A stretch of DNA of 55,708 nt, from positions 1 through 55,708 of IMG/VR virus record IMGVR_UViG_3300025101_000005; one strand, given 5' to 3'. Positions within the stretch are counted from its first letter, which is position 1. The number at the start of each line of letters is the position of its first letter. The notes under the pieces were generated by a model, which saw only the letters and a list, made by a program, of their open reading frames with translations, ran no database searches and was not told the origin of the DNA. Source of the stretch: a virus (taxonomy: Duplodnaviria; Caudoviricetes). Below, piece by piece: positions 2,317 through 47,921 of this stretch. The position numbers and the translations under genes were made by a program.

Positions 2317-2347
2317 GGACGACCAAGTTAATAACAGAAAGTATAGT
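2317..2347 (+). promoter_or_regulatory. phage late promoter motif GGACGAC-N18-TATAGT (portal)
   Basis: Begins immediately after the terL stop codon; same spacing as the other copies. Confidence 0.75.
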
Positions 2348-2354
2348 TTATATT

Positions 2355-14321: not shown

Positions 14322-14522
14322 TTGTACAAAGCATTTGTGACAATATGTCACTTAATGAATCCTGAGTATTGTATTGTACTGGAAGACCAATACGGCCCGT
14401 ACAAGACAGAGGAAATGTGCAAAAGACGTGCGTACGAAATATCAAGAAAAGTTCATAAAGGCTATCCTATGTACAAGTCTAAAAGGTTTAGATGTCCTAA
14501 AATTGGAGATTATGATTTATAG
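14322..14522 (+). CDS. hypothetical Cys-containing protein
   Basis: TTG start; C...C...GPY.TEEMC..R...C motif. Confidence 0.6.
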   Translation: MYKAFVTICHLMNPEYCIVLEDQYGPYKTEEMCKRRAYEISRKVHKGYPMYKSKRFRCPKIGDYDL

Positions 14523-25879: not shown

Positions 25880-28800
25880 ATGGCAAACCAAACAAATTAT
25901 GACGGCATATCATTTACACCACAAGAAGAGGGTGCAACAGACGTAGGATACCTTAACGTATCCCCCGACCAAATCACAAAAGACCCCCGATTTCTTACAG
26001 ATTTGCGTAAATACTACGCAGACTACGGACAGTTTTATTCTACAGACCAAGAATACCTAGACGAATTTTACGAAGACGCTACTTGGCGAGACCTAAACAC
26101 TGCTGGTGCAGTGATTGGTGCTACTTATACTCAAGGCGAGAGTAAAGAAACAAGAGCAAGAGCAAAACGTCTTGAGCAAGCATGGCGTCAGCTCCCAATG
26201 TTTTGGCAAGAAGGTGGTAGAGGCATTGCTTCTGCTGCGCCTGACATTGCTAAAGCTATTATTCTTGACCCAGTAAACCTTATTCCAGTTATTGGTGCGT
26301 ACGGCAAAGCTGCACAAGTAGCAAAAGCAGCGTATCTAGCTGGTCAGACTGGAAAGCAAGCAACAATCGCTGGTGTAAAATCTGGTATTATAGGCGCTGG
26401 TGTTCGAGAAGCTGCAATCGGTGCTGGTGCAGAAGGCGTAATTAGTACAGCAAATCAAATTAGAGATGTACAGCTTGGCTTGGAAGACGAAGTAAGCATT
26501 GGTCGAGTTGCAAAGGATGCAGTTATTGGCGGTGCTACTGGTGGACTTATTGGTGGTGGCGTTCTTGGCCCAGTACCAGCTGTTATTGGTGCAAGACGTG
26601 GAATTAACACAACAGCAGCCCAAACAGACGAGCTTATAAGCAAAGGTCTTACAGGTCAGCAAATCGCAGACACTGTAGCAGCACGTGGCGTTACGGGTTT
26701 TGACGAACTTGTTACAGCATCAAAAGATACAGACGCATTTATCCAGCCAAGTGATGCAGCGACAACAGAAACAACAGCGACCACAGAGTCACCTACAGCT
26801 GAGATTGATGAGAAAATCAATCAAATAAAAACTTTCTATAAAGAAGAGCAAGACCTACTCGATAGTCAGCTAGACGACGGCATAGACCCAGACATTGTTG
26901 CAGAAACAGAAGTAAACCTGAACGAACTGGCTGCACTTAGAGAGTTTGGCGAGAACCTAAAAGCAGAACAAATAGAAATCAGCAAGCTTGAAGCCTCAAA
27001 CAATCCTAACTTAAGGGCTCAAGCTCAGAAGCGTCGTGCAATTTTTGAAAGAAACTACTCAAAGTTTAGACGAGCAACAAGAGGCGGTCTCAATTTATCT
27101 GAAATCAACGAGATTCTTGAGCAGTATAGAGCGAAGCCAAGCGACACTGCTGACGCAAACCCAGTAGAAACAGAAGCAACAACAACTGAAGCTACTGGCG
27201 AAGGCACTACAACCACAGAAGCAGCGCCCGAAGGACGTACAGAAGGCGCAGTTTCAGAAGCTGACACCACTACTACCACTACAACGACTGAAACTGTGCC
27301 AGCAGACGAGACTGTTACAGCCACTGTCGAAGTTAAATTCGATGACATGCCTTTCAGAAACGAAGCGCAGAAAACAAAAATACAATCAAGGTTTAACGAA
27401 GAGTACACCCAAGAACAATTTGAAGCTGATTTTGCAGCTGGCAAAATTTCTGTTGGTAGGGATGGTAAGTTTACACGAGATTCTGTTGGCGAGGTAACAG
27501 CAAGCGCATCATTGGCTAGGGACAGAAAAGCGTTCACAGAAATGATGGATTCAGGCAAAGCTGAACCAAATGAAACTACAGTTACAGCAGAACCAGAAGC
27601 TAAGACAGACGAAATTATTATTGATAGCGAGTCACGAGGAAAAGCTTTAGCAGCTGGTCTTGACCCGAAAGATATTCCAGCAGCAGAGGCATCTGCTTCT
27701 GGTCGTGTTACAAAACGACAAGTTAACAAAGCAATTAATGCTGCAAAGAACAATCCTCCATCTTCTTATGCACAACAAGTGCAAAGGGACTTGGATACGC
27801 TTCTTGCAAACATTGGCAATGACATTGACGTAGACGAGAACAGTCTTAGAGCTTTGATTAGGGTTATGTCCCAGGACAAAGCTTCTTACAAGTCTGACCC
27901 AGACGACATCTTGGCATTGTTTGATGAGTTCAGCAAAAGCGGTATGGCTACAGGCGATAAGGCTTTTACACAAACAGAACTCAAAAAGATACGTCAGCTC
28001 GTTAGAAAGATTCGAGACCCTAAAGATGGCAACCCTGAGTTTTCAAAAGAAACAGCACAGATACTTGCAGAGAGACAAGTTCTCAACGCAAGAGACAATC
28101 CTGAAACGCAGACCGAATCACTGGTTCGCTCTGTTCAAAAGTCTATCGACAACAAAGGCATTTACGAAACAGCTGGTAGAGATACACGTGGACGTATCCA
28201 AGCTATGCTTCGTAAGAGTTCCGTAAACGTAAAACCAAACGAGTTTGCAAAAGAAGAAGCTATTATTAAAGCAACATCTGGCAAGGGGCCAGATGTTGTT
28301 AAGTATATCTCTGGTGGCGAAACAGCTGTAGGCCCAGATGGAAGAAAGATTCGTGTAAAAGCTGGCACTACTTTGTTTGCAGACGGCGTAACAAAGAGAA
28401 GCTTTGTAAGCTACGAATACCTTATGAAAACACGTGGTGTGAACATCGGTAAGAAATCAACAAAGAAAGTTAAACAGCCTACAGACGAAACACCAACAAT
28501 TACTAACGAGGTTGTTCAGAAGCTTGTTGCTGATTTACAGACTGACGGAGATACAGACAAGTTTATTAGAACTGTAAAAGCACTTCAAAAGAAAGGTGCT
28601 GGTGTACCTGAAGAGCCTTCAGCAACTGTAGACGTACCAACAACAAGTGCTGGTAAGAAACTAATTATCCGCTCAAAGAACAATGCTGCTGATGTTCGTA
28701 TGATTAGCCAAAAGCAAATCAGCGAAGGCAAAGGCATAGAAGCTATTATCGGTCAAAAGGGTGGGCCTAACTCAAACCCAGCAAACTGGGATATTAAATA

Positions 28801-31800
28801 CGCACCTTTTGATGCAGAGGCCAAAACGTTACGAGCAAGACAAGAACTATTTGAAAGCTTACCTTCTGGCGAAGTCCCAGGGCAAACACGTGAAGACGTT
28901 ATTAAAAAGCCTATAGACGAAGCTGAGTTTAATGAAAAAGAACTTGAGCTAAGTGAAGCAGAAGTAGCCATTGTAAACAACATCCTTGGTGAGATGGGTT
29001 TCCGTGGAGCCAATGGATTAAAAGGTAACTCGATTACTGGGCAAACCTTAATGGTTATGGAAGATAAGCTTAGTATGGGTGGGTGGCCTGTAAAAGAAAG
29101 TGCAATGGATGCACGTATTGAGCAGATAGCTTTCCTTGAAAACCTTATGGCTAAGATTGCACCTGATGGTGTAAACAAACCTGTTCAAACAAGGTCAGAA
29201 GCAAAGCTGGCTATAGAGAATATCTTTGCTGGTCACTCATCAGAAGAGATTGCTGGAGCCAAAAGACTTATTGATATGCTTGGAGGAGACCCAGACAAGG
29301 CTCCCCTAATCAGAGGCAAGACGACAGATACTATCGGGGCATACAGAGGTTATTACACACAAAGAGATAACGCTGTAACCATGAGAACTGGTCAGGGTCG
29401 TGGCACTGACATGACTCAGCTTACTCCCACAATAAACGTTTTGTACCATGAGGTTGGTCACTGGGCTTACAGAAACATTCTGACACCAGAAGACAGGGCT
29501 CAGTTTTGGAATATAGCCAAGACACACTACAAAGGAGGCAAGATAGATTCTGACTCCATAGATGAATCACGCTACCTTCAGAACCAAACAATTAGCAAAG
29601 AAGGTCGACCTGATTATGTTGTAAGACAACCTACAAGCCCACAAGAATACTTTGCAGAGCAGTTTGAAATGTGGGTCTCTCGAAAGAAAGCCTCACCAGA
29701 TTTGGCTACAGAGAAGTTTTGGCAAAGGATTGCTACGTACGTCAAAGGTATCTTTGACAGATACTACTATGGCGCTGAACTAAACCCAGACCTAGAGCCT
29801 ATCTTCGCTAAAATTATTCCTGATGTACAAGAAGAAGTTACATTCCGTCTTGGTGTAGATGACAAGCCAAAGACTGATTTCGGACGGCACATACAAAAGC
29901 GTCTTGTTCAGTTGCAAATCACTAAAGAAAACCTAGAAAGTGCAATAGGTCGTGATAGCGCAGATGGAATTGTTGAAGCTCACAAAGAGCTGCAACAGCT
30001 TCTGCTAGAGATGGTTCCGAACTCTAAGGTAGTGGCACGAGATGGTGCAGAGAACGCTATATTCTCTCCACTAAGAAAAGGTGCAGCTGGTAGAAAAGGT
30101 ATGGTCAAGATTATTCGTGACCGAATCAATAACTACGACGAAATGATTGATGGCAAACAGTACGGTACAGACGACGGGTTTGACACACGTAACTATGGTG
30201 ACTTTTCAACTCAAGCAGATATGGAGAAAGTAGCTGAACAGTTAAAAGACTTTTACTACAACGGTTATGGTGGAACATTTGTGCCAGCTGAAGGAATCCC
30301 TGGTCGAATAAAAAACCTAGAGGCTTCGTCTACGCAAAACCTTATTGGCATGATTGATAAGCAGCTAAACTCTGTTTATCAAAAGGTTGAAAACACCACT
30401 AATCTTATTGGTGGTTCTAAACCAGACATGGCTAACAAGCCTCCAGTGCGCTCAAACGGCAAGGTTCAGCCAAGCAAAACAGCCAAGAATACAAAGATTA
30501 AGAACGAAAGAATTAAAGAGCAGACCCTTAACGAAGCTGTGCAAGTTGCAAAAACAAAGAAGAATAGCAGAACAAGGGTTACTACAAAGAATACACCAGC
30601 AATCAATCAGAACTCAGCTGAATCAGTCAAGGGCAAGAAGCTTAATGACTTGCTTGCTTTGTTCAGAAAGCATAAAGGCACAGAGTATGGTGACCAAATT
30701 GGTGTAGAGATTGTAAACAAAATCAAATCTCAGCCAGCGCCAGCCAAGCAAGTACGTGTTTCACGTGGAACATTTAAGCTAAGTGGAGATGCTCTTGAGT
30801 CAGAACTGCTAGATGCTCTGCATGTAGGAGACAAAACTAGGGTAGATGAGGCCTATGCTGAAGTCGTGCGACGTGCAAACAACAAGCGTGCGAAGTCACA
30901 AGGTGGTGCAGCTATACTCAAACCTAAGTTTAAAAAGTCAAAGATGGCTATTGCTACAGAGATAGCTCACAACAAAGGTGTCGTTAGAAACGATGGTATA
31001 CCTTCTGCTGCTCGTGCTTCTGTAAGGGAGATGTTGTCTTACATCACTCACAGAGACACAGAGATGCAACAGGTCAGCAGAACTATTGCATACAGAATGA
31101 TGAACATTCTTAACAAATCATCTTATGGAACTATGCAAAACGCCAACAGAATTACTATGGACATCATGGCTCGTCTTGGTAGGGGTGACTATGCTGTAAC
31201 GGGAGATGGTGCGTTTGGAAACTACAACCTCCCAGACTTTAAAAACTTTAGAAATACAGTAAGACGACTGGCTACATCTTTAAACAAAGGCGAAGATATA
31301 GACAGCGGTATTACAGAACTAAACAATATGGTCATTCGTTCTGGAGCATTGCCACAAGACGAGATGGACGTAATAAGGGCTGCTTACGATGCTCTTGATG
31401 ACACAGCAAAAGCTCAAGTTATTGCCAAGCATGGAAGTAAGTACGAAGGTTACTATTCCATGACCAGAGATGAGATGCTGGCTAATGAATGGTTTGGAGA
31501 TTCTATATCACGATACATGAAAGAAGACATAACTCGTGATGACATTCTCGAACTAAGCATATCTGGCGACACACAAAACATAGCCAACATAGCCGTTCTC
31601 GACAGGGCAATAGACAGAACCATAGAGTATTCTTCTTACATTGCTAATGGTCAGATTGGTAGACAAGACGTTAAGAACGCTTACAGACGTGTATCCATGT
31701 ATGGCGACATGTTTGAAGACAATGCTGCTCGACCACTGGCTGGTTCGCTAGAAGGCAAGTACCTTACACACCCAAGCTATGCAGCTGATTATGCACATGA

Positions 31801-34800
31801 CAGTTTCATGTCTATGTCTAAAGACAAGAAGACAAAGATTCTTAGGTTTGTAAAAGGCGGATACGGGTTTGATGAACCCAATCAAATGCCATTGTTCTTT
31901 TATCATGGTACACCACGTGGCAACAAATTAAAGAAATCAAACAATCCAAACGTGCAGATGCGTCCGTCTGATATAGGGTTGTACGGCCCTGGCATTTACG
32001 TAACAGAGAATCCTTTTGTTGCATCACAGATGTATGCAAGGACACCAACGTTCAATGCAATGGTTGATGCAATAGATGAATCAAACCTATCAGACATTAT
32101 TAAAGAAGATTTGCACTGGGATGCTTTTGAACTTACACAAGTAAGACGAGACATTGGAAAGCTAAGACGACAGTATGCGTCTTTGCAGCCAGATGCTTAC
32201 TTGCAGCGGGAGATTGCAGACGAGAGGGTTATCGTTAAAGAACAGCTAGACGAACTCATACAGGTTGAGCGTGGTTTAGTAGCAAACATGAAAAATAATG
32301 GCATGGAGTTTGAGTCTGATGTCTTGCCTACAGTTATAAAACTAGATAGCCCAGCAGACTTCAGAGCAACAAGTATATATCAGTCTGAAGACGACCCGTT
32401 CTTGCAAGCTATCATGGCAAAGTTTAACGAAGAAGACGTGCCAGCAGAGATGATTTCTTCTCTTAGCATGCGTGGCGTAGATGGCAGAGCATTTGGCCCA
32501 AGAAGTGGAGAAGATATTTATAATTCTGTTATTGATGCTTTTGTTCGCTTCGGTGGCAGAAGTAAGACAGGCGCTCAAGCAGAATTTAACAATATGTTAC
32601 AAGAGATGGGATACGATGGTCTCTTAACTACACACAGAAATAGTTTGAATGATGGGGATGAGTTCGTTCAAACTAATAGGACTTATGGCGCTTCAAGTAT
32701 TCAACATGAAACAGCTGTTTTGTTTAACTCAAATCAAATTAAACACATCGACGCAGATGAGTTTAACGATATGGAATATGGCATCTATGCACAAACCACA
32801 GGCAACCCAATTCCAAAAGGTGCTGTAGGAAGCATGGCAAGGGGTCTTCAAGACGGAGACTTTAACAGCATAAATGACATTCCTGTCGGTGAGTTTGGAG
32901 AGCTACTAGAATCAGCTGGCGGTGACCCAAACTATGTTGGCGCTCTTATGTCTCTTATGAGAAAGAGAACGCTTACACCAGCCGAAGAAGAAACAATTAG
33001 AAAGTCTAGCCCTGTTGGGTTCCTTAAATCACAGTCTAACAACTTGAGAGATATGGGTGCTAGGTGGCTAGGCGACTGGTATGAAAACCATTTCCCTAAT
33101 TTGAACCAACGCTTTGCTGGCATATACTTTCCAATACAGAAGGCAATGAGAGGTTTGCCTGACTCTGATGGAAGCCTGAAAAGATATTTTAAGAAGTCTG
33201 TAAATGTTGGGACAACAGTCACAGACAAAATTGCAGAGCAACCAAAATCACATTCTAAGATTGTAAAAGCTTTACGTTACGGAGATGGAAGCCGTCAAGA
33301 AACAGCTCTTACCGACCAAGAACGTGTTGTTTACAGGCAAATTAGAAGTGCCTTTGAAGCAGAAAGACAAGCCATGTTAGATGCTGGCTTGATGGTTGGC
33401 TATAGACAAAACTATTTCCCACAAGTTTGGAACGCAAAAGCTATTGGCAAAGACAGAGATAAGTTTCTCGAAGTTCTACAACGATACTACAACAAAGACG
33501 CACTTCTAAATGGCAGAACACCTACAGACGAAGAAGCAAAAGACTTTGCTGAAGGCGTTATGATGAAGCTTGTAGATGATGAGGATGGTGCAGACGGAAC
33601 ATTTATTCCAGTAAAAGGCACAACAAGGAGCCCAACATTTGACAACGTTGATTACTCAAGGGTTCTTGAGCTTGATAAACCAGAGTTTATTGATGAGCTT
33701 CGAGACCTAGAAAAGTATTTAGAGAGTGACCTCGATGCGTTGCTTGTTAAATACTTTGAGGGTAGCTCAAGAAAGATGACCCATGTGGACGAGCTTGGTA
33801 TTAATAGCCACGCTGTTTACGATTACATGCAAGTAGCTGAAGAAGGTGTGCAAGGAATTGCAAAACTTCTATCAACAAACAAACAGTTTAGGTTTGACAG
33901 GAGTGCAACAAACGCATCTGGCATGATGGAAACATTTACTTTGCAAGACGTAATACGTATGCCGTTTGCAAACAGTGATGCTGAAGCTCTTAGATTTGCA
34001 GAGCAGTTAGTGAACACACATAATGGTGCTGGCGCTCCAGCTGCAAGACAACTTATATATGCGGTAGCTCCAATAGACCCACGCACTGGCAGAATGAACC
34101 AGACATATAAGAGACGTGCTGATGCAATCGTGCATGCTCTTGATGACTTCAAAGGCAAAACAGGAGTGTTGCAACCACAAGACTATGACTTTATCGAGCG
34201 TTCTTTGAAGCCTGTTATGAAGAAGCCTCTAACAACTATGGGAGGCAAAGCAATACAAACAGCCTCAAGGAATTTAAGATTCTTTAACAACATTACGTTG
34301 CTTTCATACACAACTCTTACATCACTTGGTGACTTGGTACTTCCAGTCATTCGTTCTGGAAGTATGAAGTCTTGGATGAAAGGCATGTTCAGCCTGAGAG
34401 ATGCTGAGATGAGGCAAGCGATTAGAAACACAGGCGTTGCTATGGAGAACATCATTCACGAAAGAATGATTCATCTGTATGGCGCACCTGATGGCAAGGC
34501 ATCACATGCTTTCTTCAATGCCACGTTGCTTACAGACTGGACTGATATGAACAGACAGATAGCAGCAGCAACTGGTTACAACTATTTCCAAGCTATGCAG
34601 ACGAAAGCATTTAACAACTTCAAGGAAGGTGTGCCTTACGCACAGCAACCAGCATCATACAAAACTGCACACAGAGCTTTGAAGATGTATGGTCTTGAGA
34701 TGTATTTGCCTGGGGCAGAAGTAAATCCAAAATCTCTTGGCGATAAAAACGTCTTGCAAGACAAGCATGTTAAGATGGCTATGATAAGATTCGCTGATGA

Positions 34801-35467
34801 TTCTATCTTCCAACCTAATGCAGACGACGTGCCAATGTGGGCTCAGACACCAATAGGTGCGCTTGTATTCCAGCTCAAGTCATTCCCGCTGATGATGACA
34901 CGTCTTACAGGACACGTCTTGAAGGAAGCAAACTCTGGAAACTTTGGCCCACTGTTAGCTTTCGCAGCTCTTGGCCCAACATTTGGTATGGGAACTCTAG
35001 CAGCAAAAGATATTTTGCAGTCACGTGGTGGCGATGATGGTAGAAGCCCAGAGACTAGAAAGAGAAACATTCTTAAATCTCTAGGCTATGACAAGAAAGT
35101 ACACGGAGATGAAGACAACTTCCTTGGCTGGTATGTTGAAGGTTTAATTGTAATGGGTGGTCTTGGTCTTATTGGAGACATGATGCACACAGCAGTTGAA
35201 CAAATAGACAACGGAGCTTACGGACGAGAAAGAATGTGGGGAACATTACTCGGCCCAACGTTTGGTCTTGGCAACTCAGCAGCTAATGTTTTTGCTGGTA
35301 TCGGAGCAGAAGAAGGAAGCGGTAAATCAAGACAAGCAGTCAGAGAAATTGCCAACAGGATACCAGTTGTCGGTGGTAACAGAGCAGCTAAAGAAGCTAT
35401 CGTTGATGCAGTTGCTGGTGAATCTGATGACAATTCAAAGTCTTATCTAAGGAGCATCACTAAATAA
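25880..35467 (+). CDS. giant polyvalent internal virion protein (zincin metallopeptidase and ADP-ribosyltransferase-like domains)
   Basis: 3195 aa; GGAG RBS. Gly/Ala hydrophobic segment near the N-terminus, HEVGH...EYFAE, YHGT...GPGIY.T...GYDG...NQIK, and an ejection-protein-like C-terminus. Confidence 0.8.
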   Translation: MANQTNYDGISFTPQEEGATDVGYLNVSPDQITKDPRFLTDLRKYYADYGQFYSTDQEYLDEFYEDATWRDLNTAGAVIGATYTQGESKETRARAKRLEQAWRQLPMFWQEGGRGIASAAPDIAKAIILDPVNLIPVIGAYGKAAQVAKAAYLAGQTGKQATIAGVKSGIIGAGVREAAIGAGAEGVISTANQIRDVQLGLEDEVSIGRVAKDAVIGGATGGLIGGGVLGPVPAVIGARRGINTTAAQTDELISKGLTGQQIADTVAARGVTGFDELVTASKDTDAFIQPSDAATTETTATTESPTAEIDEKINQIKTFYKEEQDLLDSQLDDGIDPDIVAETEVNLNELAALREFGENLKAEQIEISKLEASNNPNLRAQAQKRRAIFERNYSKFRRATRGGLNLSEINEILEQYRAKPSDTADANPVETEATTTEATGEGTTTTEAAPEGRTEGAVSEADTTTTTTTTETVPADETVTATVEVKFDDMPFRNEAQKTKIQSRFNEEYTQEQFEADFAAGKISVGRDGKFTRDSVGEVTASASLARDRKAFTEMMDSGKAEPNETTVTAEPEAKTDEIIIDSESRGKALAAGLDPKDIPAAEASASGRVTKRQVNKAINAAKNNPPSSYAQQVQRDLDTLLANIGNDIDVDENSLRALIRVMSQDKASYKSDPDDILALFDEFSKSGMATGDKAFTQTELKKIRQLVRKIRDPKDGNPEFSKETAQILAERQVLNARDNPETQTESLVRSVQKSIDNKGIYETAGRDTRGRIQAMLRKSSVNVKPNEFAKEEAIIKATSGKGPDVVKYISGGETAVGPDGRKIRVKAGTTLFADGVTKRSFVSYEYLMKTRGVNIGKKSTKKVKQPTDETPTITNEVVQKLVADLQTDGDTDKFIRTVKALQKKGAGVPEEPSATVDVPTTSAGKKLIIRSKNNAADVRMISQKQISEGKGIEAIIGQKGGPNSNPANWDIKYAPFDAEAKTLRARQELFESLPSGEVPGQTREDVIKKPIDEAEFNEKELELSEAEVAIVNNILGEMGFRGANGLKGNSITGQTLMVMEDKLSMGGWPVKESAMDARIEQIAFLENLMAKIAPDGVNKPVQTRSEAKLAIENIFAGHSSEEIAGAKRLIDMLGGDPDKAPLIRGKTTDTIGAYRGYYTQRDNAVTMRTGQGRGTDMTQLTPTINVLYHEVGHWAYRNILTPEDRAQFWNIAKTHYKGGKIDSDSIDESRYLQNQTISKEGRPDYVVRQPTSPQEYFAEQFEMWVSRKKASPDLATEKFWQRIATYVKGIFDRYYYGAELNPDLEPIFAKIIPDVQEEVTFRLGVDDKPKTDFGRHIQKRLVQLQITKENLESAIGRDSADGIVEAHKELQQLLLEMVPNSKVVARDGAENAIFSPLRKGAAGRKGMVKIIRDRINNYDEMIDGKQYGTDDGFDTRNYGDFSTQADMEKVAEQLKDFYYNGYGGTFVPAEGIPGRIKNLEASSTQNLIGMIDKQLNSVYQKVENTTNLIGGSKPDMANKPPVRSNGKVQPSKTAKNTKIKNERIKEQTLNEAVQVAKTKKNSRTRVTTKNTPAINQNSAESVKGKKLNDLLALFRKHKGTEYGDQIGVEIVNKIKSQPAPAKQVRVSRGTFKLSGDALESELLDALHVGDKTRVDEAYAEVVRRANNKRAKSQGGAAILKPKFKKSKMAIATEIAHNKGVVRNDGIPSAARASVREMLSYITHRDTEMQQVSRTIAYRMMNILNKSSYGTMQNANRITMDIMARLGRGDYAVTGDGAFGNYNLPDFKNFRNTVRRLATSLNKGEDIDSGITELNNMVIRSGALPQDEMDVIRAAYDALDDTAKAQVIAKHGSKYEGYYSMTRDEMLANEWFGDSISRYMKEDITRDDILELSISGDTQNIANIAVLDRAIDRTIEYSSYIANGQIGRQDVKNAYRRVSMYGDMFEDNAARPLAGSLEGKYLTHPSYAADYAHDSFMSMSKDKKTKILRFVKGGYGFDEPNQMPLFFYHGTPRGNKLKKSNNPNVQMRPSDIGLYGPGIYVTENPFVASQMYARTPTFNAMVDAIDESNLSDIIKEDLHWDAFELTQVRRDIGKLRRQYASLQPDAYLQREIADERVIVKEQLDELIQVERGLVANMKNNGMEFESDVLPTVIKLDSPADFRATSIYQSEDDPFLQAIMAKFNEEDVPAEMISSLSMRGVDGRAFGPRSGEDIYNSVIDAFVRFGGRSKTGAQAEFNNMLQEMGYDGLLTTHRNSLNDGDEFVQTNRTYGASSIQHETAVLFNSNQIKHIDADEFNDMEYGIYAQTTGNPIPKGAVGSMARGLQDGDFNSINDIPVGEFGELLESAGGDPNYVGALMSLMRKRTLTPAEEETIRKSSPVGFLKSQSNNLRDMGARWLGDWYENHFPNLNQRFAGIYFPIQKAMRGLPDSDGSLKRYFKKSVNVGTTVTDKIAEQPKSHSKIVKALRYGDGSRQETALTDQERVVYRQIRSAFEAERQAMLDAGLMVGYRQNYFPQVWNAKAIGKDRDKFLEVLQRYYNKDALLNGRTPTDEEAKDFAEGVMMKLVDDEDGADGTFIPVKGTTRSPTFDNVDYSRVLELDKPEFIDELRDLEKYLESDLDALLVKYFEGSSRKMTHVDELGINSHAVYDYMQVAEEGVQGIAKLLSTNKQFRFDRSATNASGMMETFTLQDVIRMPFANSDAEALRFAEQLVNTHNGAGAPAARQLIYAVAPIDPRTGRMNQTYKRRADAIVHALDDFKGKTGVLQPQDYDFIERSLKPVMKKPLTTMGGKAIQTASRNLRFFNNITLLSYTTLTSLGDLVLPVIRSGSMKSWMKGMFSLRDAEMRQAIRNTGVAMENIIHERMIHLYGAPDGKASHAFFNATLLTDWTDMNRQIAAATGYNYFQAMQTKAFNNFKEGVPYAQQPASYKTAHRALKMYGLEMYLPGAEVNPKSLGDKNVLQDKHVKMAMIRFADDSIFQPNADDVPMWAQTPIGALVFQLKSFPLMMTRLTGHVLKEANSGNFGPLLAFAALGPTFGMGTLAAKDILQSRGGDDGRSPETRKRNILKSLGYDKKVHGDEDNFLGWYVEGLIVMGGLGLIGDMMHTAVEQIDNGAYGRERMWGTLLGPTFGLGNSAANVFAGIGAEEGSGKSRQAVREIANRIPVVGGNRAAKEAIVDAVAGESDDNSKSYLRSITK

Positions 35468-40720: not shown

Positions 40721-40948
40721 ATGCGACTTAACATCGAGAAGCTCATCACCGATTTGGGTGGGGCGTCTTCGGTGGCTAAGATAACTGGCGTGGTTCGTAC
40801 TGCCCCATACGGCTGGATGAAGAGACGCTATATAAGTAGCCAAGTTCTTGAGAAAATAAAGGAGCATGCTCCAGAAATTGACTTTAACAATTACTTTGAG
40901 GAAGACGAACATGAACGAAAAACTGGCAGCAGCGCTGGATTATCTTGA
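40721..40948 (+). CDS. Cro-like HTH regulator
   Basis: LI..LGG.S.VAK.TGV...A.YGW..R..I pattern; first gene of the divergent unit; AAGGAG RBS. Confidence 0.8.
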   Translation: MRLNIEKLITDLGGASSVAKITGVVRTAPYGWMKRRYISSQVLEKIKEHAPEIDFNNYFEEDEHERKTGSSAGLS

Positions 40949-42812
40949 GAGAGGTTGGTCTGTAATACCAATCAAACCAGACGCTAAAAGACCCGCTATT
41001 AAGTGGAGACAATATCAAGATAAGCCACCTACGGAGAAAGAAGTAGACCAATGGTGGACACAATGGCCTGACTATGACATTGCAATCATAACAGGCGAGG
41101 TAAGTGGAATTGTTGTTGTCGATTGTGACAATGAAGAAGCTTACGAACAGGCAATAAACACAGGCATGCGCTCGGCTTTTACAGTCAAGACGAAAAGAGG
41201 AGTGCATTTATATTTCGAGCATCCCAAAGATGGAGTTCGTCGTGGGCCTCGTGCTGGCGTAAACAGCACGGGCTCCGACTGGCCTCGTATAAATGGGTTG
41301 GATTTTAGAGGCGACGGCTCTTATGCGTTGCTACCTCCAAGTAAAAACTATAGTTGGGAGATAGGTATAGGCTTAGACTGGGATGACATTCCAACTTGGA
41401 AGGATTGGAAACCAGTCTTACCATCTATGGATGGCAAAGACTTTGAGTTCTCACAGCTAGACTTGTCTTCCGTAATGCCATTAGACCCAGACGAGTTTAT
41501 ATCGGAGTGGGATAGGACTGCCAAATATGTCCGTGATTCTTTTCCAAACTCACTGAAGATTCCATCTGGTCTTGGCAACGGACGCAACGAACGTGTGATG
41601 CGTTACATATCTGAATCCATACTTGAAGGGTTCTGGGGTCACGACTTACGTCTTCGTGGCTTTGCGTTTATGAATGAGTTTTTTGAAGCGCCCTTAACAG
41701 AACGTGAGTTTGAGGCAACGGTTCTGTCTATGGAACAATCAGAACGACGTAATCATCCTGACAGATTTGATGAGAAGGGTGACTATATATATAAGCCATA
41801 CATAAATGCTAACCAACCAGTCGAAGCTAGGACACGCAGACTTATACAAATGAAAGATGCAGACCAGCTGTTACAAGAAGCTGATGCAAAGACGTATCTG
41901 ATAGAACCTTGGCTTCCAAGTAATACGATTGTGCAAGTGTTTGGATACAGTGGTCACGGGAAGTCGTTGTTTGTACAACATGCAATGGGTGCTTTGTCTG
42001 CTGGCAACAAATACTTTGGCCCTTTTGAGATAGGTAAACCAGCACGTGTATTGTATATGGACTTCGAGATGGGCATGGCTACCATCGCAAGACGATTGAT
42101 TGACTTGAAATCAATACATTCTGACACGGCTGACAGACTCAATATCTGGACTCCGTTTATTGATAAGAAAGAAATTAATCTGCACAACAGAGATGGTTTA
42201 CAGGAACTGCAAGGTTGGATTGAGTTCTCCGACCCAGACGTTGTTGTCATAGATACACTACGAACAGCTTACCCAGGGCTACAGGAGAACAGCTCAGACG
42301 AATGGTCAAAGGTAAACCAGCTCGCAGTGAAGCTCAGAAACTCTGGCTTGTCTGTAATACTTATACATCACAGTAACAAACCAAGTGACAGTGGCATTGG
42401 AAGAGAAGCTGGCTCAACGAATCAGCTTACTACTTTAGAAACACAAATACGTGTAGCACAAGTATTCCAAGACGAAGATACAGCGAAACAAAATGCTGCG
42501 TTGTATGATGGCAACTATGACCAACCTGTCTGGCCCTTGCTGCAAGGAAGTTTGCCTGAGAACTTTCGTCTGTATATGGTGATGGAAGTTCGATACGGAA
42601 AAGTTCGTGAGTGGACAGACCTACACGATAGAGTTCAGTGGCTAGGGTTTTCTGCAAACGATATTACTGGCGAGAAGCGTATCGTCGCTAGCAAATCTAC
42701 AAAACAAAAAGCAAAAGAGATGGCTCTGAATGGATTAGACGCCGAGCATATAGCCGAAAAGCTTGGCAAGCCTCTTACTTTGGTTCGTCTTTGGTTGGAG
42801 TTATCGAAGTAA
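40911..42812 (+). CDS. bifunctional primase-polymerase fused to RepA/AAA_25 helicase
   Basis: GWSVIP, K.P...W, IITG..SGIVVVDCD, RGVHLYF, DFRGDGSY..PPS; GNGRN (PriCT-like); GYSGHGKS, VVIDTL, IHHSNK; C-terminal HTH-like end. Confidence 0.9.
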   Translation: MNEKLAAALDYLERGWSVIPIKPDAKRPAIKWRQYQDKPPTEKEVDQWWTQWPDYDIAIITGEVSGIVVVDCDNEEAYEQAINTGMRSAFTVKTKRGVHLYFEHPKDGVRRGPRAGVNSTGSDWPRINGLDFRGDGSYALLPPSKNYSWEIGIGLDWDDIPTWKDWKPVLPSMDGKDFEFSQLDLSSVMPLDPDEFISEWDRTAKYVRDSFPNSLKIPSGLGNGRNERVMRYISESILEGFWGHDLRLRGFAFMNEFFEAPLTEREFEATVLSMEQSERRNHPDRFDEKGDYIYKPYINANQPVEARTRRLIQMKDADQLLQEADAKTYLIEPWLPSNTIVQVFGYSGHGKSLFVQHAMGALSAGNKYFGPFEIGKPARVLYMDFEMGMATIARRLIDLKSIHSDTADRLNIWTPFIDKKEINLHNRDGLQELQGWIEFSDPDVVVIDTLRTAYPGLQENSSDEWSKVNQLAVKLRNSGLSVILIHHSNKPSDSGIGREAGSTNQLTTLETQIRVAQVFQDEDTAKQNAALYDGNYDQPVWPLLQGSLPENFRLYMVMEVRYGKVREWTDLHDRVQWLGFSANDITGEKRIVASKSTKQKAKEMALNGLDAEHIAEKLGKPLTLVRLWLELSK

Positions 42813-43185: not shown

Positions 43186-43479
43186 ATGCCAAGAAACATT
43201 CGAGTCTCGGACTCGAACTTATCTTGGCTTCGTCAAAACCATAGAATTAAAACTTACTCTGACATGGCACAACACCTTAATTGTTGTGTCGATACCTTGA
43301 AAAGAATACTTGTAAGAGAAGGCTTGCAAGAGTTCGATGGGGCCAAGTATCAGGTTCGCCGTGACTTCCAAGGAAAAACGTGGGCTAGGCCGTGCATGAA
43401 ATGTAAAGATACGACAGAGCGACCAAAGAATTGGTTTTTTTGTAAGTCTTGTCGTAAAGATTTGGGGTACGAGGATTGA
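43186..43479 (+). CDS. HTH plus C4 zinc-finger protein, candidate transcription regulator
   Basis: TYSDMAQHLNCCVDTLKRILVREGL HTH-like segment; CMKC...CKSC; AAGGAG RBS and upstream TGTTATACT extended -10. Confidence 0.7.
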   Translation: MPRNIRVSDSNLSWLRQNHRIKTYSDMAQHLNCCVDTLKRILVREGLQEFDGAKYQVRRDFQGKTWARPCMKCKDTTERPKNWFFCKSCRKDLGYED

Positions 43480-43859
43480 GTAAGCAAAAGAAAAAAGGCG
43501 ACGACTACGAAAGAGAGTTAGCCAAATACATTAATCAAGAAACAGGACTGAAGACAGCGCACAGAGCCCCATTATCTGGTGGTGGTTACGTGGATATGTC
43601 GGGTGGTGCAGATATTCTTGGTGTCCCAGGGATATTCATAGAAGCTAAACGTGTTGAACGTCTGAACTTCCATGACGCCCTGAGACAAGCCGAACGTAAC
43701 ATAGGAAAAACAAATGCACCAGAGGTTCCTATCGTAATTAATAGAAAAAATAGAATGAGAACAGGCGAAAGCCTTTGTCTTATAAGGCTAGACGACTTCT
43801 TAAAATTTTATTGTAGTTACCTGAGAGAAACAGGTTCAGTTAAATTTAACAACAGATAG
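43476..43859 (+). CDS. Holliday-junction resolvase-like PD-(D/E)XK nuclease
   Basis: KG..YERELA, R.PLSG, ADI, IEAKR.E motifs. Confidence 0.8.
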   Translation: MSKQKKKGDDYERELAKYINQETGLKTAHRAPLSGGGYVDMSGGADILGVPGIFIEAKRVERLNFHDALRQAERNIGKTNAPEVPIVINRKNRMRTGESLCLIRLDDFLKFYCSYLRETGSVKFNNR

Positions 43860-43889
43860 GACGACTAAGACGTTGTCATCCAGTATCTT
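43859..43889 (+). promoter_or_regulatory. phage late promoter motif GGACGAC-N18-TATCTT (basic microprotein operon)
   Basis: Overlaps the last base of the upstream TAG; consensus spacing. Confidence 0.75.
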
Positions 43890-43960
43890 TATTGAAGGTA
43901 GAGAAGTACAGTTTATTGGCTGTATACTTTTGTACATACTTTATAGAGTGGTTTTTGGAT

Positions 43961-44224
43961 ATGGCACGAAAGAAAAGCGTAAAACTGTCAGTAGGAAGAG
44001 GCGAAAAGAGACCCGCCTCCAAAGGGGCGGGCCTCACAGCAAAAGGCAGACGTAAATATAACAAAGCTACAGGCTCTAACTTGAAAGCCCCACAACCACA
44101 AGGTGGTAAGCGTAAGAAATCATACTGCTCAAGGTCTGCTGGTCAGATGAAAATGCACAACATCAGCTGTAAGAAGACTCCAAAGAAAAGAATTTGCGCA
44201 GCCAGACGTAGGTGGAAGTGCTAA
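43961..44224 (+). CDS. 87-aa basic protein (DUF6321-like)
   Basis: Start MARKKSVK; GLTAKGR..YN..TGSNLKAP, R.KSYC.R..G and terminal RRRWKC. Confidence 0.75.
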   Translation: MARKKSVKLSVGRGEKRPASKGAGLTAKGRRKYNKATGSNLKAPQPQGGKRKKSYCSRSAGQMKMHNISCKKTPKKRICAARRRWKC

Positions 44225-44835
44225 TGGCAGACGACTGGGATGAGTTTTCAACACTTGTTGCAGCTGAGATTCAATCTTGGTCTGAAGAAGTATTAGAAAA
44301 ACCAACACCATTATTTGCAGACATGCCCCCATGTCCTTTCGCAAAAAAGGCTTGGCTCGAAGGCAATGTCGTCGTTCATGTAACCGAAAGACTAGAACCT
44401 GTAATAGAAATCAAGAACGAGATGTGTCTTACAGACGAGATAACACACGTTGTAGCATGGACAGGTTGGGAAGACTTGAGCTTTGAAGATTTCAACAGCT
44501 GGCTAGACAATCAAAATAAAAATCATTTTGGAATTTGGTTGATGGGTTTTCACCCTGAAGCCGAATCGCATCCTAACGTACCAGAATTTGAAGGTATCGT
44601 TGAGGACGACTATGCACTACTACTTGTGCAATCATTAGGTTATCTTGTTAAATCTTCTGATAAGTTGAGGAAGACAAACTATTATCAAAAGTTTAATATA
44701 GATGACATAAAGTATATTAATCATCGCAAGGAGGTCTATCATGCGTGGAATGAAAAAATCAATGAAAAAGCCTATGCCAAAGAAGAAAACTATGGCATCA
44801 AAAAAAGGCTCTATGAAGAAAAAAAAGGTCATTAG
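44224..44835 (+). CDS. acidic DUF1415-like protein
   Basis: TAATG coupling; PCPFAKKAW and GFHP motifs; D/E-rich. Confidence 0.65.
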   Translation: MADDWDEFSTLVAAEIQSWSEEVLEKPTPLFADMPPCPFAKKAWLEGNVVVHVTERLEPVIEIKNEMCLTDEITHVVAWTGWEDLSFEDFNSWLDNQNKNHFGIWLMGFHPEAESHPNVPEFEGIVEDDYALLLVQSLGYLVKSSDKLRKTNYYQKFNIDDIKYINHRKEVYHAWNEKINEKAYAKEENYGIKKRLYEEKKGH

Positions 44836-44845
44836 GAGAGCTTAA
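44741..44845 (+). CDS. 34-aa Lys/Met-rich microprotein, overprinted (not in ORF track)
   Basis: AAGGAGG RBS; MRGMKKSMKKPMPKKKTMASKKGSMKKKKVIRRA; stop is TAATG-coupled to 44845. Confidence 0.75.
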   Translation: MRGMKKSMKKPMPKKKTMASKKGSMKKKKVIRRA

Positions 44846-45036
44846 TGATTAAGAAAAACCGAGGCGTTATCTTCGGAACACGTGGCAAAACACCAGGGAT
44901 GCAGTCGATGAAGGTTGGTGGCAAAAACATCAACCCTTATCGTGCAATGTCCATGATGCCTAGCCAGTTCGGAAGAACAACCACAGGAGTAAAACCTATC
45001 TTCGGTGGTCGTGGTCGTTCCCTCAGACGTAGGTAA
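44845..45036 (+). CDS. 63-aa basic microprotein
   Basis: K/R/G-rich with no acidic residues; AGGAG RBS. Confidence 0.7.
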   Translation: MIKKNRGVIFGTRGKTPGMQSMKVGGKNINPYRAMSMMPSQFGRTTTGVKPIFGGRGRSLRRR

Positions 45037-45041
45037 ACACT

Positions 45042-45173
45042 GTGGCTAGTATTGGTAGGAAAGTAAAAGCTGTCGCAAACAAAACGCAGACAGGTAAAAT
45101 GAAGCACGCAAATTGTCCTTGCGTGTTGGCACGAGGTAACAATGGCAAGAAAGTCAACGTCAAAAAAGGGTAA
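45042..45173 (+). CDS. 43-aa basic microprotein (not in ORF track)
   Basis: GTG start after AGGT; MASIGRKVKAVANKTQTGKMKHANCPCVLARGNNGKKVNVKKG fills the gap. Confidence 0.55.
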   Translation: MASIGRKVKAVANKTQTGKMKHANCPCVLARGNNGKKVNVKKG

Positions 45174-45327
45174 GACATCTAGCAAGAAAGACGCTTGTTA
45201 CCACAAAGTTAAGTCACGCTACACAAAATGGCCTAGCGCTTATGCTAGCGGAGCATTAGTTAAATGTAGACGTGTAGGCGCAAAGAACTGGGGTAAGAAG
45301 AGTGGCTCGAAGCGAAAGTCTGCATAA
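45142..45327 (+). CDS. 61-aa basic protein (WPSAYASG family, DUF5872-like)
   Basis: KDACY.KVK.RY.KWPSAYASGALVKCR motif; GAGG RBS. Confidence 0.75.
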   Translation: MARKSTSKKGKTSSKKDACYHKVKSRYTKWPSAYASGALVKCRRVGAKNWGKKSGSKRKSA

Positions 45328-45520
45328 ATGGTTCAGCAGAAACAAAGGCAAAGGCTGGGTAGACTGCAAGACTGGAAAGCCTTGTGGTCGTAAGTCGGCG
45401 AAGGGTAAATCCAAGAGACCTTATCCAGCTTGCAGACCGACGAAGGCTCAATGCTCGTCTGCCAGCAGAAAGAAGAAAGGGCCAGCACGTATCAGCTGGA
45501 AGAAAGGAAAGAAGAAATGA
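45302..45520 (+). CDS. 72-aa basic protein (DUF5872-like)
   Basis: L.KWF...WVD..TGKPCGR...R.YP.CRP motif. Confidence 0.75.
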   Translation: MARSESLHKWFSRNKGKGWVDCKTGKPCGRKSAKGKSKRPYPACRPTKAQCSSASRKKKGPARISWKKGKKK

Positions 45521-45660
45521 GGGGAATGAAGAAAAGCATGACCAAAGGAAAGAGCTTAACTAAAAAGCAAAAGATGATTGCTGGTATGGCTCCTCCGTTT
45601 AACAAGATTACAGGCGCAGACTTCAAGAAGTTAAAGAAGAAGCGCACGAGAACAGCTTGA
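45517..45660 (+). CDS. 47-aa basic microprotein
   Basis: ATGA coupling; MRGMKKSM...LTKKQK.IA...PP..KITGADF..L. Confidence 0.7.
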   Translation: MRGMKKSMTKGKSLTKKQKMIAGMAPPFNKITGADFKKLKKKRTRTA

Positions 45661-45977
45661 TTTGCCACGAATGTGGAGGCTCTACAAAAGTATTAGACAG
45701 TCGTTCCAAAGACGGAAGCATAAGACGCAAGAGAACATGCACGAATTGCAGTACGAGTTTCTGGACATTGGAAGTATTAGAGACCTCCTTGCACACAGAG
45801 AAAGACTGTACGTCAGAGAAGAACGTTTCTCAGACGAAAAGAAAAGTGACCCCAAAAATCTCCCAGGAAAAACTAAATAACACATCTTACATGTTCGACG
45901 TCGACAGCTTGTCAGACGAAGAGCTAGAAAAACAAGTCATGTCTGGCAATGTAAGGTTTGACGAAGACGAACTATAG
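45657..45977 (+). CDS. NrdR-N / Ogr-Delta-like zinc-ribbon protein
   Basis: CHECGGSTKVLDSR....IRRKRTC..C...F.T.E matches the NrdR zinc ribbon; no ATP cone; acidic tail. Confidence 0.75.
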   Translation: MICHECGGSTKVLDSRSKDGSIRRKRTCTNCSTSFWTLEVLETSLHTEKDCTSEKNVSQTKRKVTPKISQEKLNNTSYMFDVDSLSDEELEKQVMSGNVRFDEDEL

Positions 45978-46007
45978 GACGACACTTGCTACTCCCCTAG
46001 TTATTTT
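45977..46007 (+). promoter_or_regulatory. phage late promoter motif GGACGAC-N18-TATTTT
   Basis: Overlaps the last base of the upstream TAG; consensus spacing. Confidence 0.7.
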
Positions 46008-46934: not shown

Positions 46935-47921
46935 TTACTCTCCTTCAAGTAAGTTGATTGTTGTTTCTAAATGTGTCGGTGCGAGATGCGAATACCTCAT
47001 CACCATTGCTAGAGACGAATGTCCAAGCAAGTCTGCAACCGCTCGAAGAGATGCCCCCTTTTGCACCAAGTGACTAGCGAACGTGTGCCTACAATCATGT
47101 GGTGTAAAATCTTTTATGCCAGCAACGTTGCAAGCGTTGTAAAAGCTGTCGTAAAACTTAGACCTCACCCACTGGCTTCCGTCTGGCTGAGTGAAAACGA
47201 AATCGTCGTCGTCGTCGACTGTCAGAACTTTAGATACTCTGGCCCCCAGCGGAACAGCTCGAACCTTTTTTCGTTTCGTCTTGCCTTTTTTGCTGGTGAA
47301 TAATGCCGAGCCCCTGTGAATATCCTGTGGACAAAGTGCGAAAGCCTCGCCAATCCTCGCCCCCGTATAGAATAAAAAGGTTACGACGTCTTTGATTGTG
47401 CTATCGCAACAGTCAATCAGATGGTCTCGCTCGGTCTCGGTCAACCAACGCAAGCGACTATCATCCACGTTCGGACGTACAATATTTATGCTTGGCACAT
47501 CCCACCCCATACTCTCTGCATGCGATAGCATGGCTTTGATACTGTTCAACTCTCTCGCCACAGTGTTTGGCTTGTTCCCTCGGCTTGTAACGTGGCTCAT
47601 AATTTGCTCCAACGTCAACGCATGCAATGGAACATGTCCAAGTGCAGACGAAAAAAGTCGCATGATTGTTTGGTCGGTAGTCCCAGGTGAACTTGGTCGT
47701 CCCAGGAAAGCATCCGCTGCGTCAGCTGCAAGACGTCTTGATTTCGTCTTGACCTCTCCCGCTGCGACGGCAGCATAAGTTTTTGTGAGTTCGTCTTTGG
47801 CTTTTGATTTCTGGCTCTTGTGAAGGCCCGTGGATTTCCGTACTCGGATGGGTCTTCCGTCTTGTATGACAGTGCCAGTTATCTGCCATACGTCTTTGCG
47901 TAAAGTTAAGTTAAGTGTCAT
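46935..47921 (-). CDS. int: tyrosine recombinase / integrase
   Basis: TGARIGE (R), SKKGK (K), HDCRH, LGHS and RY.H catalytic motifs; N-terminal arm-binding-like W.I.G......RVRKSTG. Confidence 0.9.
   Translation of the reverse strand: MTLNLTLRKDVWQITGTVIQDGRPIRVRKSTGLHKSQKSKAKDELTKTYAAVAAGEVKTKSRRLAADAADAFLGRPSSPGTTDQTIMRLFSSALGHVPLHALTLEQIMSHVTSRGNKPNTVARELNSIKAMLSHAESMGWDVPSINIVRPNVDDSRLRWLTETERDHLIDCCDSTIKDVVTFLFYTGARIGEAFALCPQDIHRGSALFTSKKGKTKRKKVRAVPLGARVSKVLTVDDDDDFVFTQPDGSQWVRSKFYDSFYNACNVAGIKDFTPHDCRHTFASHLVQKGASLRAVADLLGHSSLAMVMRYSHLAPTHLETTINLLEGE

Follow-up and report, generated by a model that had tools for sequence, protein, structure and literature searches.

The IMG/VR virus record IMGVR_UViG_3300025101_000005 (55,708 nt, hereafter the window, at its full length) has direct terminal repeats and is rated complete. 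Between positions 43961 and 45660 it carries a cassette of seven small genes for strongly basic microproteins (P1 and P3 to P8), which are grouped around one gene for an acidic protein (ACID). These genes are real, conserved and linked, their modules have homologues in other phages, a promoter-like motif is shared with structural genes, and in related viruses the setting is one of structural genes. On this basis we tentatively propose that the microproteins would be a late, head-associated cargo that binds nucleic acid, and that ACID would handle or modify a polycationic peptide.

Results

Seven basic microproteins and one acidic protein form a cassette

A preliminary description of the region had listed seven basic open reading frames (ORFs) of 87, 34, 63, 43, 61, 72 and 47 aa, nearly devoid of Asp and Glu, with an acidic protein of about 200 aa amid them. 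All of them were found, with zero to two acidic residues in each basic product. The cassette and the gene that closes the unit are arranged as follows:

43961-44224, plus strand: P1, 87 aa, net charge +28, one Asp+Glu
44224-44835, plus strand: ACID, 203 aa from ATG, pI 4.9, net charge -16
44741-44845, plus strand: P3, 34 aa, net charge +16, no Asp+Glu; in another frame over the ACID 3' end
44845-45036, plus strand: P4, 63 aa, net charge +15, no Asp+Glu
45042-45173, plus strand: P5, 43 aa, GTG start, net charge +11, no Asp+Glu
45142-45327, plus strand: P6, 61 aa, net charge +19, one Asp+Glu
45302-45520, plus strand: P7, 72 aa, GTG start, net charge +23, two Asp+Glu
45517-45660, plus strand: P8, 47 aa from an ATG inside a longer TTG ORF, net charge +15, one Asp+Glu
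45657-45977, plus strand: NrdR-like zinc-ribbon protein, 106 aa, at the end of the unit; gene start and P8 stop overlap

Neighbouring genes overlap or adjoin one another, as described before, with TAATG and ATGA junctions and overlaps of 32 and 26 nt, and Shine-Dalgarno-like sequences were seen ahead of P3, P4 and P6. A later start had been proposed for one ORF; this is supported for P8 and also for P1, but not for P7, where the N-termini of homologues back the GTG start. In a six-frame scan of the whole window, four of the eight ORFs with at least 27% Lys+Arg and at most 4% Asp+Glu were located in this 1.7 kb.

The region was aligned with nine related IMG/VR loci, and differences were counted against five of these, which represent three near-independent lineages. 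The pooled ratio of nonsynonymous to synonymous differences (pN/pS) in the proposed frames was 0.17 for P1, 0.13 for P3, 0.10 for P4, 0.09 for P5, 0.16 for P6, 0.06 for P7 and 0.40 for P8, while values of 0.53 to 12.8 were obtained in the two alternative frames for the same five loci. Constraint was weakest for P8, for which one alternative frame gave 0.53; this ORF is present in eight close relatives. Judged by these substitution patterns, all seven microprotein ORFs are genes under purifying selection in their own frame only, P8 being the least certain. Where P3 overlaps ACID, the P3 frame is constrained (pN/pS 0.13) and the ACID frame is unconstrained (1.5-1.7). The last 31 ACID codons (44740-44832, plus strand), which P3 overlaps, thus show no constraint in the ACID frame, and the Lys/Glu-rich tail that they encode is probably a by-product of the P3 overlap. 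In close relatives P7 and P6 are kept at 94-99% and 90-97% identity, respectively, compared with 74-76% for ACID; conservation is higher in the microproteins than in the larger proteins encoded beside them.

Families and motifs of the microproteins

P1 is a member of the Pfam family DUF6321 (PF19846; 58.7 bits against a cut-off of 28.5, E 9.1e-16), with residues 21-85 aligning to positions 4-72 of the 72 profile positions. It carries the core GAG[LM]T-x-KG...GS-x-LK...S[YF]C[AS]RS...RRW[KR]C with a C-terminal Cys, a core that was read from an alignment of 18 sequences (A2) and not from a Pfam description. Invariant in A2 are G22, G24, T26, G29, Y33, G38, S39, L41, R51, S54, C56, R58, S59, P74, R77, A81, R82, R84, W85 and C87; the R-R-W-[KR]-C at the C-terminus of P1 is invariant, and so is one further Cys.

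P6 is a two-Cys unit with the core DACYHKVKSRYxxWPSAYASGALVKCRxxGAKNWG. It matched phrog_727 (2.4e-19) as well as phrog_38880 and phrog_3477, and it was not filed as DUF5872 (PF19197) because its score lies under the cut-off (17.0 against 27.5 bits, E 0.0092). The P7 unit reads LHKWF...GWVDCKTGKPCGR...YPACRP, and P5 contains a conserved G-x-MKH-x2-CPC. P3 is Met/Lys-rich, begins with MRGMKKSMKK and has an AAGGAGG 7 nt upstream; it represents, at this locus, the MRGGGM-repeat peptide found behind ACID in relatives. P8, which starts with MRGMKKSM like P3, is a P3 paralogue. P4 is Gly/Arg-rich and lacks Cys. Its relatives comprise ten cluster representatives among 1.84 billion proteins, of which nine have 57-64 aa and one is a fragment of 31 aa; the nine stand alone and have the motifs RGVIFGT and SQFGR in common with P4.

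No family match was obtained for P3, P4, P5, P7 and P8 in the libraries scanned, and in NCBIfam and PADLOC the cassette proteins were unmatched except for the zinc ribbon. The preliminary description had considered ribosome- or RNA-binding effectors; ribosomal-protein homology and other RNA-binding families were sought in Pfam and NCBIfam for each of the seven, and none was found. Sequence-profile searches of the PDB with A2 and with the ACID alignment A1 gave no meaningful match. In a full-text literature search for DUF5872 and DUF6321 the sole mention was a DUF5872 gene listed in an algal virus, and the available text of the phiRIO-1 proteomics paper does not mention small basic proteins (PMC4819975).

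Unannotated genes of this kind were also seen in cultured phages. Roseobacter phage CRP-810 has two small basic genes behind its ACID homologue (L003:4512-4721 and 4724-4909; a P4 homologue at the equivalent place and a 69-aa basic ORF), and Puniceispirillum phage HMO-2011 has a 50-aa MRGGM-repeat peptide behind its ACID homologue (about L004:4503-4655). Other cationic mini-modules occur in such clusters (L016, L020, L059, L070, L076 and L005 of phage CRP-345), with the patterns ARGCG...RRK.T.Y, KPKRTP...IRFGQQG...YW..KVKW and GQWSARKAQ, and some of them are fused to P6-like units. Their recurrence points to a shuffled toolkit of cationic modules.

The same modules are fused in cyanophage proteins

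In a nucleotide search of cultured phages only the P6 segment was matched, in 21 cyanophage records. The matched segments fall within genes that carry the label 'virion protein' (S-SCSM1 ORF29, by its GenBank record) or 'structural protein' (S-B43), both of which sit just upstream of the large terminase gene. The fused chains run from a P7-like HKWF...GWV unit through a P6-like DACYHKVK...WPSAYASG...NWG unit and further modules to a P1-like DUF6321 domain at the C-terminus. In S-SCSM1 ORF29, P7 matched the N-terminal module (46% over 28 aa, 4e-5), P6 was 88% identical over 34 aa (E 3e-20), and P1 matched the C-terminus (38% over 71 aa, 8e-10), where DUF6321 was also detected with Pfam (3e-22). 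According to the accessible part of the S-SCSM1 study, 45 proteins, 13 of them of unknown function, were identified by mass spectrometry in CsCl-purified particles (PMC9602691).

Among 8000 longer candidate proteins scored, 7999 contained a P6 match at E <= 0.001. Many of the P6-matching chains end in DUF6321, and some carry DUF5661, DUF192 or kinase-like domains. Among cultured phages, 157 records contain DUF6321, and both cyanophages and SAR11 phages are represented in them. Pelagibacter phage Greip encodes a stand-alone DUF6321 protein of 83 aa (gp45, L087:2450-2701) among nine ORFs of 38-77 aa; its label 'RecA-like recombination protein' was considered as a sign of a fusion to a DNA enzyme and dismissed, as the name was apparently carried over from gp114 of another phage. 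Likewise, gp65 of HMO-2011, a 'virion structural protein' beside the ACID homologue, was rejected as a fused basic polyprotein, being an unrelated protein.

In five fused chains that were checked, a hydrophobic-x-Glu-Gly/Ala/Ser site was present within 25 residues upstream of 11 of the 18 modules. The chains therewith appear jointed for a head protease, a placement that is compatible with cleavage and is no proof of it. No match to a head-maturation protease family was obtained at E <= 0.001 among the 41 window ORFs scanned. Because the window phage nevertheless encodes the same units singly, this suggests that the working form is a mini-protein of 40-90 residues; that no such protease was found may also be why each unit has its own start codon here, unlike in the jointed myophage proteins.

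ACID and a Met/Lys/Gly-repeat peptide are a conserved gene pair

A scan of IMG/VR with ACID returned 245 relatives, and 80 of the 245 loci were kept. The counts over 82 or 83 ACID loci given here include many near-duplicates; 82 loci had room downstream, and 185 other gene ends in the same loci served as controls. A strongly basic small ORF was present at the ACID 3' end in 73 of the 82 loci (controls: 18/185), and the gene of a Met/Lys/Gly-repeat peptide with units like KKMRGGGMVKK started at or inside the ACID 3' end in 62 of them (controls: 1/185). ACID and the Met/Lys/Gly peptide are thereby firmly shown to be a conserved gene pair, which is also present in HMO-2011 and CRP-345. The number of repeats varies among near-identical loci (for example 65, 66, 79 and 96 aa), and this fits a function that would depend on bulk charge rather than on a fold.

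The other microproteins are linked to ACID as well. By tblastn, P1 was detected in 33, P7 in 22 and P6 in 19 of the 83 ACID loci, and homologues of the microproteins were found at 40-99% protein identity across many loci. This co-occurrence survey bore out the earlier proposal of a dedicated, co-conserved system. Since most cyanomyoviruses with fused modules showed no ACID homologue, the steady partner of ACID is the Met/Lys/Gly peptide and not all seven microproteins.

Gene order differs between groups of loci, and an order such as P1-P6-P7-ACID recurs in several distant groups. Structural genes were located within 3 kb of ACID in 59 of the 82 loci, a resolvase context as in the window in 10 and neither in 13. 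A virion or tail gene of the phrog_12985 type starts 137-1291 nt behind ACID in 58 loci, with capsid genes upstream. Locus L013 belongs to the same phage family as the window (capsid protein 83% and scaffold-like protein 51% identical to those of the window) and holds P1-ACID-P5-P6-P7, with the P5 homologue directly behind ACID, exactly between the scaffold and capsid genes. Because the cassette adjoins the replication end in the window and lies between scaffold and capsid genes in L013, it is, by this comparison of gene orders, mobile within one family, and its usual home is the head/tail module.

ACID is distantly related to DUF1415 and DUF6875

ACID contains the motifs PPCPFAKKAW and WLMGFHP, is moderately acidic (19% Asp+Glu) and matched phrog_28122 (1.4e-10). 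In a profile search 528 family proteins were recognised among 2218 candidates scored, essentially all of them from marine metagenomes or viruses. Alignment A1 comprises 33 ACID sequences, down to 24% identity, and a profile scan of genome contigs with A1 returned no cellular relatives; the family appears to be viral only. Invariant in A1 are W19, C37, P38, A40, W44, P111, Q136, Y153, Y154 and R168, and CPFAKKAW is almost unchanged, while the His of GFHP is not invariant. All 33 of 33 sequences have Cys37-Pro38, with [GN]-x-[LMV]-P-[AP] ahead of it.

ACID homologues were found in few cultured phages (5 and 8 records), with S-SSM7 and S-SSM6a as the only cyanomyoviruses. The S-SSM7 protein SSSM7_092 (L086:2405-2935) is a solitary, divergent homologue with 24.7% identity to a family member, in which RCPFAKKA, Q..S and GYY are kept; no cationic peptide gene was seen behind it.

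The window ACID itself has no Pfam match: DUF1415 was absent at E <= 1, and also at E <= 10 in six frames, and DUF6875 was absent. In the wider family, DUF1415 (PF07209, cut-off 26 bits) was matched by 22 of the 33 A1 members at E <= 1 and by 15 of 46 further members at E <= 0.01, and three proteins scored above the cut-off (L063, 37.0 bits; P0042, 30.3 bits; P0053, 36.9 bits). DUF6875 (PF21780, cut-off 24.5 bits) was matched by 11 of the 33 at E <= 1 and by 8 of the 46 at E <= 0.01; three ACID relatives lie just above the cut-off with 25.7 bits, over profile positions 3-60 only. The two models align co-linearly on the same ACID-family proteins, and a feature search of the ESM Atlas led to DUF6875 and DUF1415 again. 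In terms of profile similarity ACID is a distant relative of DUF1415 and DUF6875, which is a superfamily link and not membership. A full-text literature search for both families gave no phage work, as far as titles and abstracts indicate.

DUF6875 corresponds to cytochrome P422, in which, according to the available text of a recent preprint, a b-haem is ligated by the Cys of RxGxVCP and Trp hydroxylation or the formation of C-S bonds is catalysed (bioRxiv 10.64898/2025.12.11.692455). The Cys-Pro of ACID, which lies where the first 60 positions of the DUF6875 model align, matches the place of this ligand by HMM coordinates only, and the Arg of RxGxVCP is absent. The P422 substrate motifs Rx(M/L)x3Dx2F, Dx2(Q/H)x3K and MxGxF could not be recognised by eye in A1, where the nearest resemblance is W-L-M-G-F-H-P with a different spacing. 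Because this Arg and the three motifs are absent, a haem-thiolate enzyme is kept as a lead and not as a finding, one that we regard as possible yet doubtful. A complex prediction with ACID residues 1-180 (A1), P1 (A2) and haem scored 0.01 against a mark of 0.32 and counts neither way. The earlier guess of a Cys-redox partner came close with respect to the invariant Cys-Pro and the DUF1415/DUF6875 relation, although the window ACID falls into neither family.

A promoter-like motif is common to the cassette and structural genes

The preliminary description had placed a GGACGAC promoter at 43859. The heptamer is real and enriched (16 copies in the window, with 3.1 expected; the plus strand holds 13), and it is part of a composite motif:

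43859..43889, plus strand: GGACGAC-N18-TATCTT; the first G doubles as the final base of the resolvase stop TAG
45977..46007, plus strand: GGACGAC-N18-TATTTT; second copy, closing the cassette
2317, 8530, 13161, 15871, 25822, 43859, 45977 and 55353, plus strand, and 53177, minus strand: all copies of the composite motif

The form GGACGAC-N18-xAxxxT was found 9 times against 0.26 expected, and 0 of 100 shuffles reached 9. Five intergenic copies (2317, 15871, 25822, 43859 and 45977) begin at or just after a stop codon, and the copy at 13161 is located 54 nt ahead of the scaffold gene; in these six the hexamers 18 nt behind GGACGAC are TATAGT, CATAGT, TAAATT, TATCTT, TATTTT and AATAAT. The start on or right behind a stop codon (TAGGACGAC), ahead of structural genes, was seen in several copies. 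Copies of the motif are located ahead of the portal, scaffold and giant internal-protein genes, and another stands behind the capsid gene. The two copies on either side of the cassette persist in 8 of 8 close relatives, with three variants of the spacer, whereas the spacer behind the 43859 motif, the leader to P1, has only 33-61% identity in 7 of these 8. A structured RNA in this leader was considered and dropped, as the leader is not conserved.

Two elements at fixed spacing that are conserved in relatives are what is expected of a sigma-70-type promoter. A generic sigma-70 scan did not report the motif, and GGACGAC differs from the TTGACA consensus. The motif thus looks like a candidate phage-specific promoter class common to structural genes and the cassette. 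Of the 'late operon' proposed before, the promoter-like motif shared with structural genes stands, and we infer late timing from it. The zinc-ribbon protein at the end of the unit (Zn_ribbon_NrdR of Pfam, 1.8e-11) lacks the ATP-cone and ends in a strongly acidic tail; it may serve as a small regulator of late genes, perhaps in connection with the GGACGAC motif.

The window phage and the place of the cassette

ACID shares 47% identity with gp20 of Roseobacter phage CRP-810; more distant relatives are proteins of CRP-345 and HMO-2011. Because of the identity to gp20 the window phage is assigned, by sequence relationship, to the temperate marine CRP-810-type family, which has been described (PMC11288001); the accessible text of that description does not mention the small cassette genes (PMC11288001). 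A PHROG scan of 41 window ORFs was the basis of the genome map:

697-2316: large terminase
2295-4316: portal
13245-14318: scaffold-like gene
14322-14522, plus strand: 66-aa ORF with a TTG start and three Cys
14674-15867: major capsid protein
25880-35467, plus strand: 3195-aa ORF with the GGACGAC motif ahead
40866-42812: primase/helicase
43476-43859: resolvase
46935-47921: integrase

Tail-fibre-like genes, a holin and an endolysin, and recombination genes on the minus strand were also recognised with PHROG. The 3195-aa ORF is probably the 'internal virion protein D' named in the available part of the CRP-810 paper (PMC11288001). The 66-aa ORF between the scaffold and capsid genes occupies the slot in which L013 holds the whole cassette, and its pattern is loosely like that of CRP-345 gp76.

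Discussion

In the proposed role, the stretch from 43859 to 45977 would be one translationally coupled unit, which from the company of its motif may be expressed late, so that the microproteins would be made together with the head proteins. The Cys-pair mini-proteins (P1, P5, P6 and P7) and the low-complexity polycations (P3, P4 and P8) would associate with nucleic acid and the head, binding presumably through bulk positive charge and small Cys-stapled units. A modest number of copies would be taken into the capsid together with the DNA or bound to it, and would be released with it at infection. ACID and the overlapping Met/Lys/Gly peptide would be a separate conserved pair, in which ACID may either keep the polycation harmless until assembly or modify it chemically.

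Several points weigh against this proposal. In the window the cassette adjoins replication and recombination genes, outside the head module. The virion label belongs to a fused protein of a distant myovirus and not to the window's phage family; moreover, the supplement of the S-SCSM1 study lists ORF29 as 'hypothetical' only, and the virion status rests on the record label. Packaging and DNA binding are putative for the window's phage family. The absence of an ACID homologue from most cyanomyoviruses with fused modules implies that these modules work without ACID, because among cyanomyoviruses only S-SSM7 and S-SSM6a had one, and ACID resembles enzyme families rather than a plain chaperone. According to the accessible text of one review-type source, evidence for a substantial part of basic proteins in the neutralisation of phage DNA is lacking, and dense packing leaves little room for them (PMC3281028). 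The DNA condensation, charge neutralisation and chaperoning suggested in the preliminary description are conjectural, and full neutralisation is arithmetically implausible: one set of the seven brings +127 charges in 407 residues against 111,416 phosphates, so that about 880 sets would be needed, in which the protein would weigh about as much as the DNA. What is plausible is at most a partial neutralisation, or else a role that does not depend on bulk, for example in ordering the DNA that passes first or last or in shielding the DNA on entry.

Alternatively, the microproteins might act in the infected cell without being packaged, coating or compacting nucleic acid or binding ribosomes or RNA for host shut-off or the organisation of replication, with ACID buffering their toxicity. 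The location behind primase/helicase and resolvase genes in the window and nine other loci would suit such a role, as would a small basic size like that of ribosomal proteins, and a universal target, such as nucleic acid or the ribosome, would agree with a P6 core that is extremely conserved even between phages whose hosts are unrelated (88% to cyanomyoviruses). We consider it unlikely, however, given the lack of ribosomal or RNA-binding family matches in Pfam and NCBIfam, the place among structural genes at most related loci, the virion label of the fused form and a motif common to head genes. That the ORFs are chance open frames in purine-rich DNA can hardly be credited: A-rich sequence does readily give rise to Lys-rich frames, gene callers had overlooked two of the ORFs, and the homologues in CRP-810 and HMO-2011 are unannotated, but the frame-specific purifying selection on all seven contradicts this, as do the 40-99% identical homologues at many loci, the Pfam and PHROG matches and the Shine-Dalgarno-like sequences of P3, P4 and P6.

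Two further explanations centre on ACID. It may be a thiolate-haem (P422-like) or other Cys-dependent enzyme that modifies the co-encoded peptides in a peptide-maturation system, for which the co-linear family matches to DUF1415 and DUF6875, the invariant Cys-Pro preceded by G-x-[LMV]-P-x and the overlapped, probably coupled translation with a peptide at most loci speak. Yet the window ACID matches neither family, the Arg and the substrate motifs of P422 were not recognisable in A1, the characterised P422 enzymes have free Trp as their substrate and depend on ferredoxin with its reductase, Trp is lacking in the Met/Lys/Gly peptides, and many DUF6321 phages showed no ACID homologue, which makes this account improbable. 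More specifically, a Cys-ligated haem enzyme could oxidise the Met of MRGGGM or hydroxylate or C-S cross-link the C-terminal Trp-x-Cys of DUF6321, the head then carrying the matured peptides; for this detailed version we see only a slim chance. ACID and the basic peptide might instead be a toxin-antidote or counter-defence pair, such as an acidic DNA mimic with a cationic partner, that is unrelated to the particle. Opposite charges, overlapping genes and strict adjacency agree with such a pair, and so does the occurrence of the cassette at different genome places within one phage family, as a mobile unit. We judge it very unlikely, as none of 5027 defence-system models was matched, the acidity of ACID is moderate, the buried-looking conserved CPFAKKAW and GYY suggest a cofactor or active site and not a surface mimic, and capsid and tail genes are the usual neighbours on either side.

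The microprotein families are already catalogued as domains of unknown function. New are the split form with one gene per module, the conserved pair of ACID and the Met/Lys/Gly peptide together with the DUF1415/P422 link, the change of place of the cassette, which in one family is seen both at the replication end and in the head module, and the promoter-like motif. The cassette units are among the commonest unexplained sequences of ocean viruses. The split form provides a natural map of the pieces to be expected from the fused myophage proteins, and it exposes genes missed by annotation pipelines in the cultured CRP-810 and HMO-2011. Should the microproteins be packaged, dedicated cationic proteins associated with the genome would be a feature of tailed phages as they are of eukaryotic viruses, against the usual view; if ACID binds haem, it would represent a new enzyme class in phage morphogenesis.

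Comparison with known systems

ACID is similar in length to the P422/DUF6875 and DUF1415 proteins (~180-200 aa), but its context is one of phage structural genes and cationic peptides instead of Trp metabolism, and its haem binding is only putative. The internal proteins of phage T4 are small and basic, are loaded into the head and are ejected with the DNA; IPI, IPII, IPIII and Alt carry a capsid-targeting sequence and are cut by the head protease gp21. They are a functional model which the fused cyanophage forms resemble, and no sequence similarity is claimed. The window microproteins, in contrast, have no T4-type targeting leader or Leu/Ile-x-Glu site and begin with MARKK, MRGMKK, MIKKNRG and the like, and the window phage resembles HMO-2011- and CRP-810-type phages, not T4-like myoviruses.

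A further likeness is to basic viral proteins that travel with the genome, as in PBCV-1, whose particles contain several basic DNA-bound proteins according to the available text of one article (PMC3281028). In common are a very basic character and a paucity of Asp and Glu. Those proteins, however, are Arg-rich or larger, reach copy numbers that neutralise much of the DNA and belong to less densely packed capsids, whereas the window microproteins are Lys-rich with Cys pairs and have no known homology to them.

The closest known counterparts are S-SCSM1 ORF29 (QFG06285) and the S-B43 protein (QDH50481), which correspond to PHROGs 727 and 3477 and contain homologues of P7, P6 and P1. In these T4-like cyanophages the fused gene is located in the late region beside the terminase gene and is labelled as a particle protein. 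Their chains include CWxGY and beta-rich modules that the window cassette lacks, while P3, P4, P5, P8 and ACID have no counterpart in them. What the cyanophages carry as units of one chain of 427-957 aa, the window phage encodes with one gene per unit, in products of 61-87 aa.

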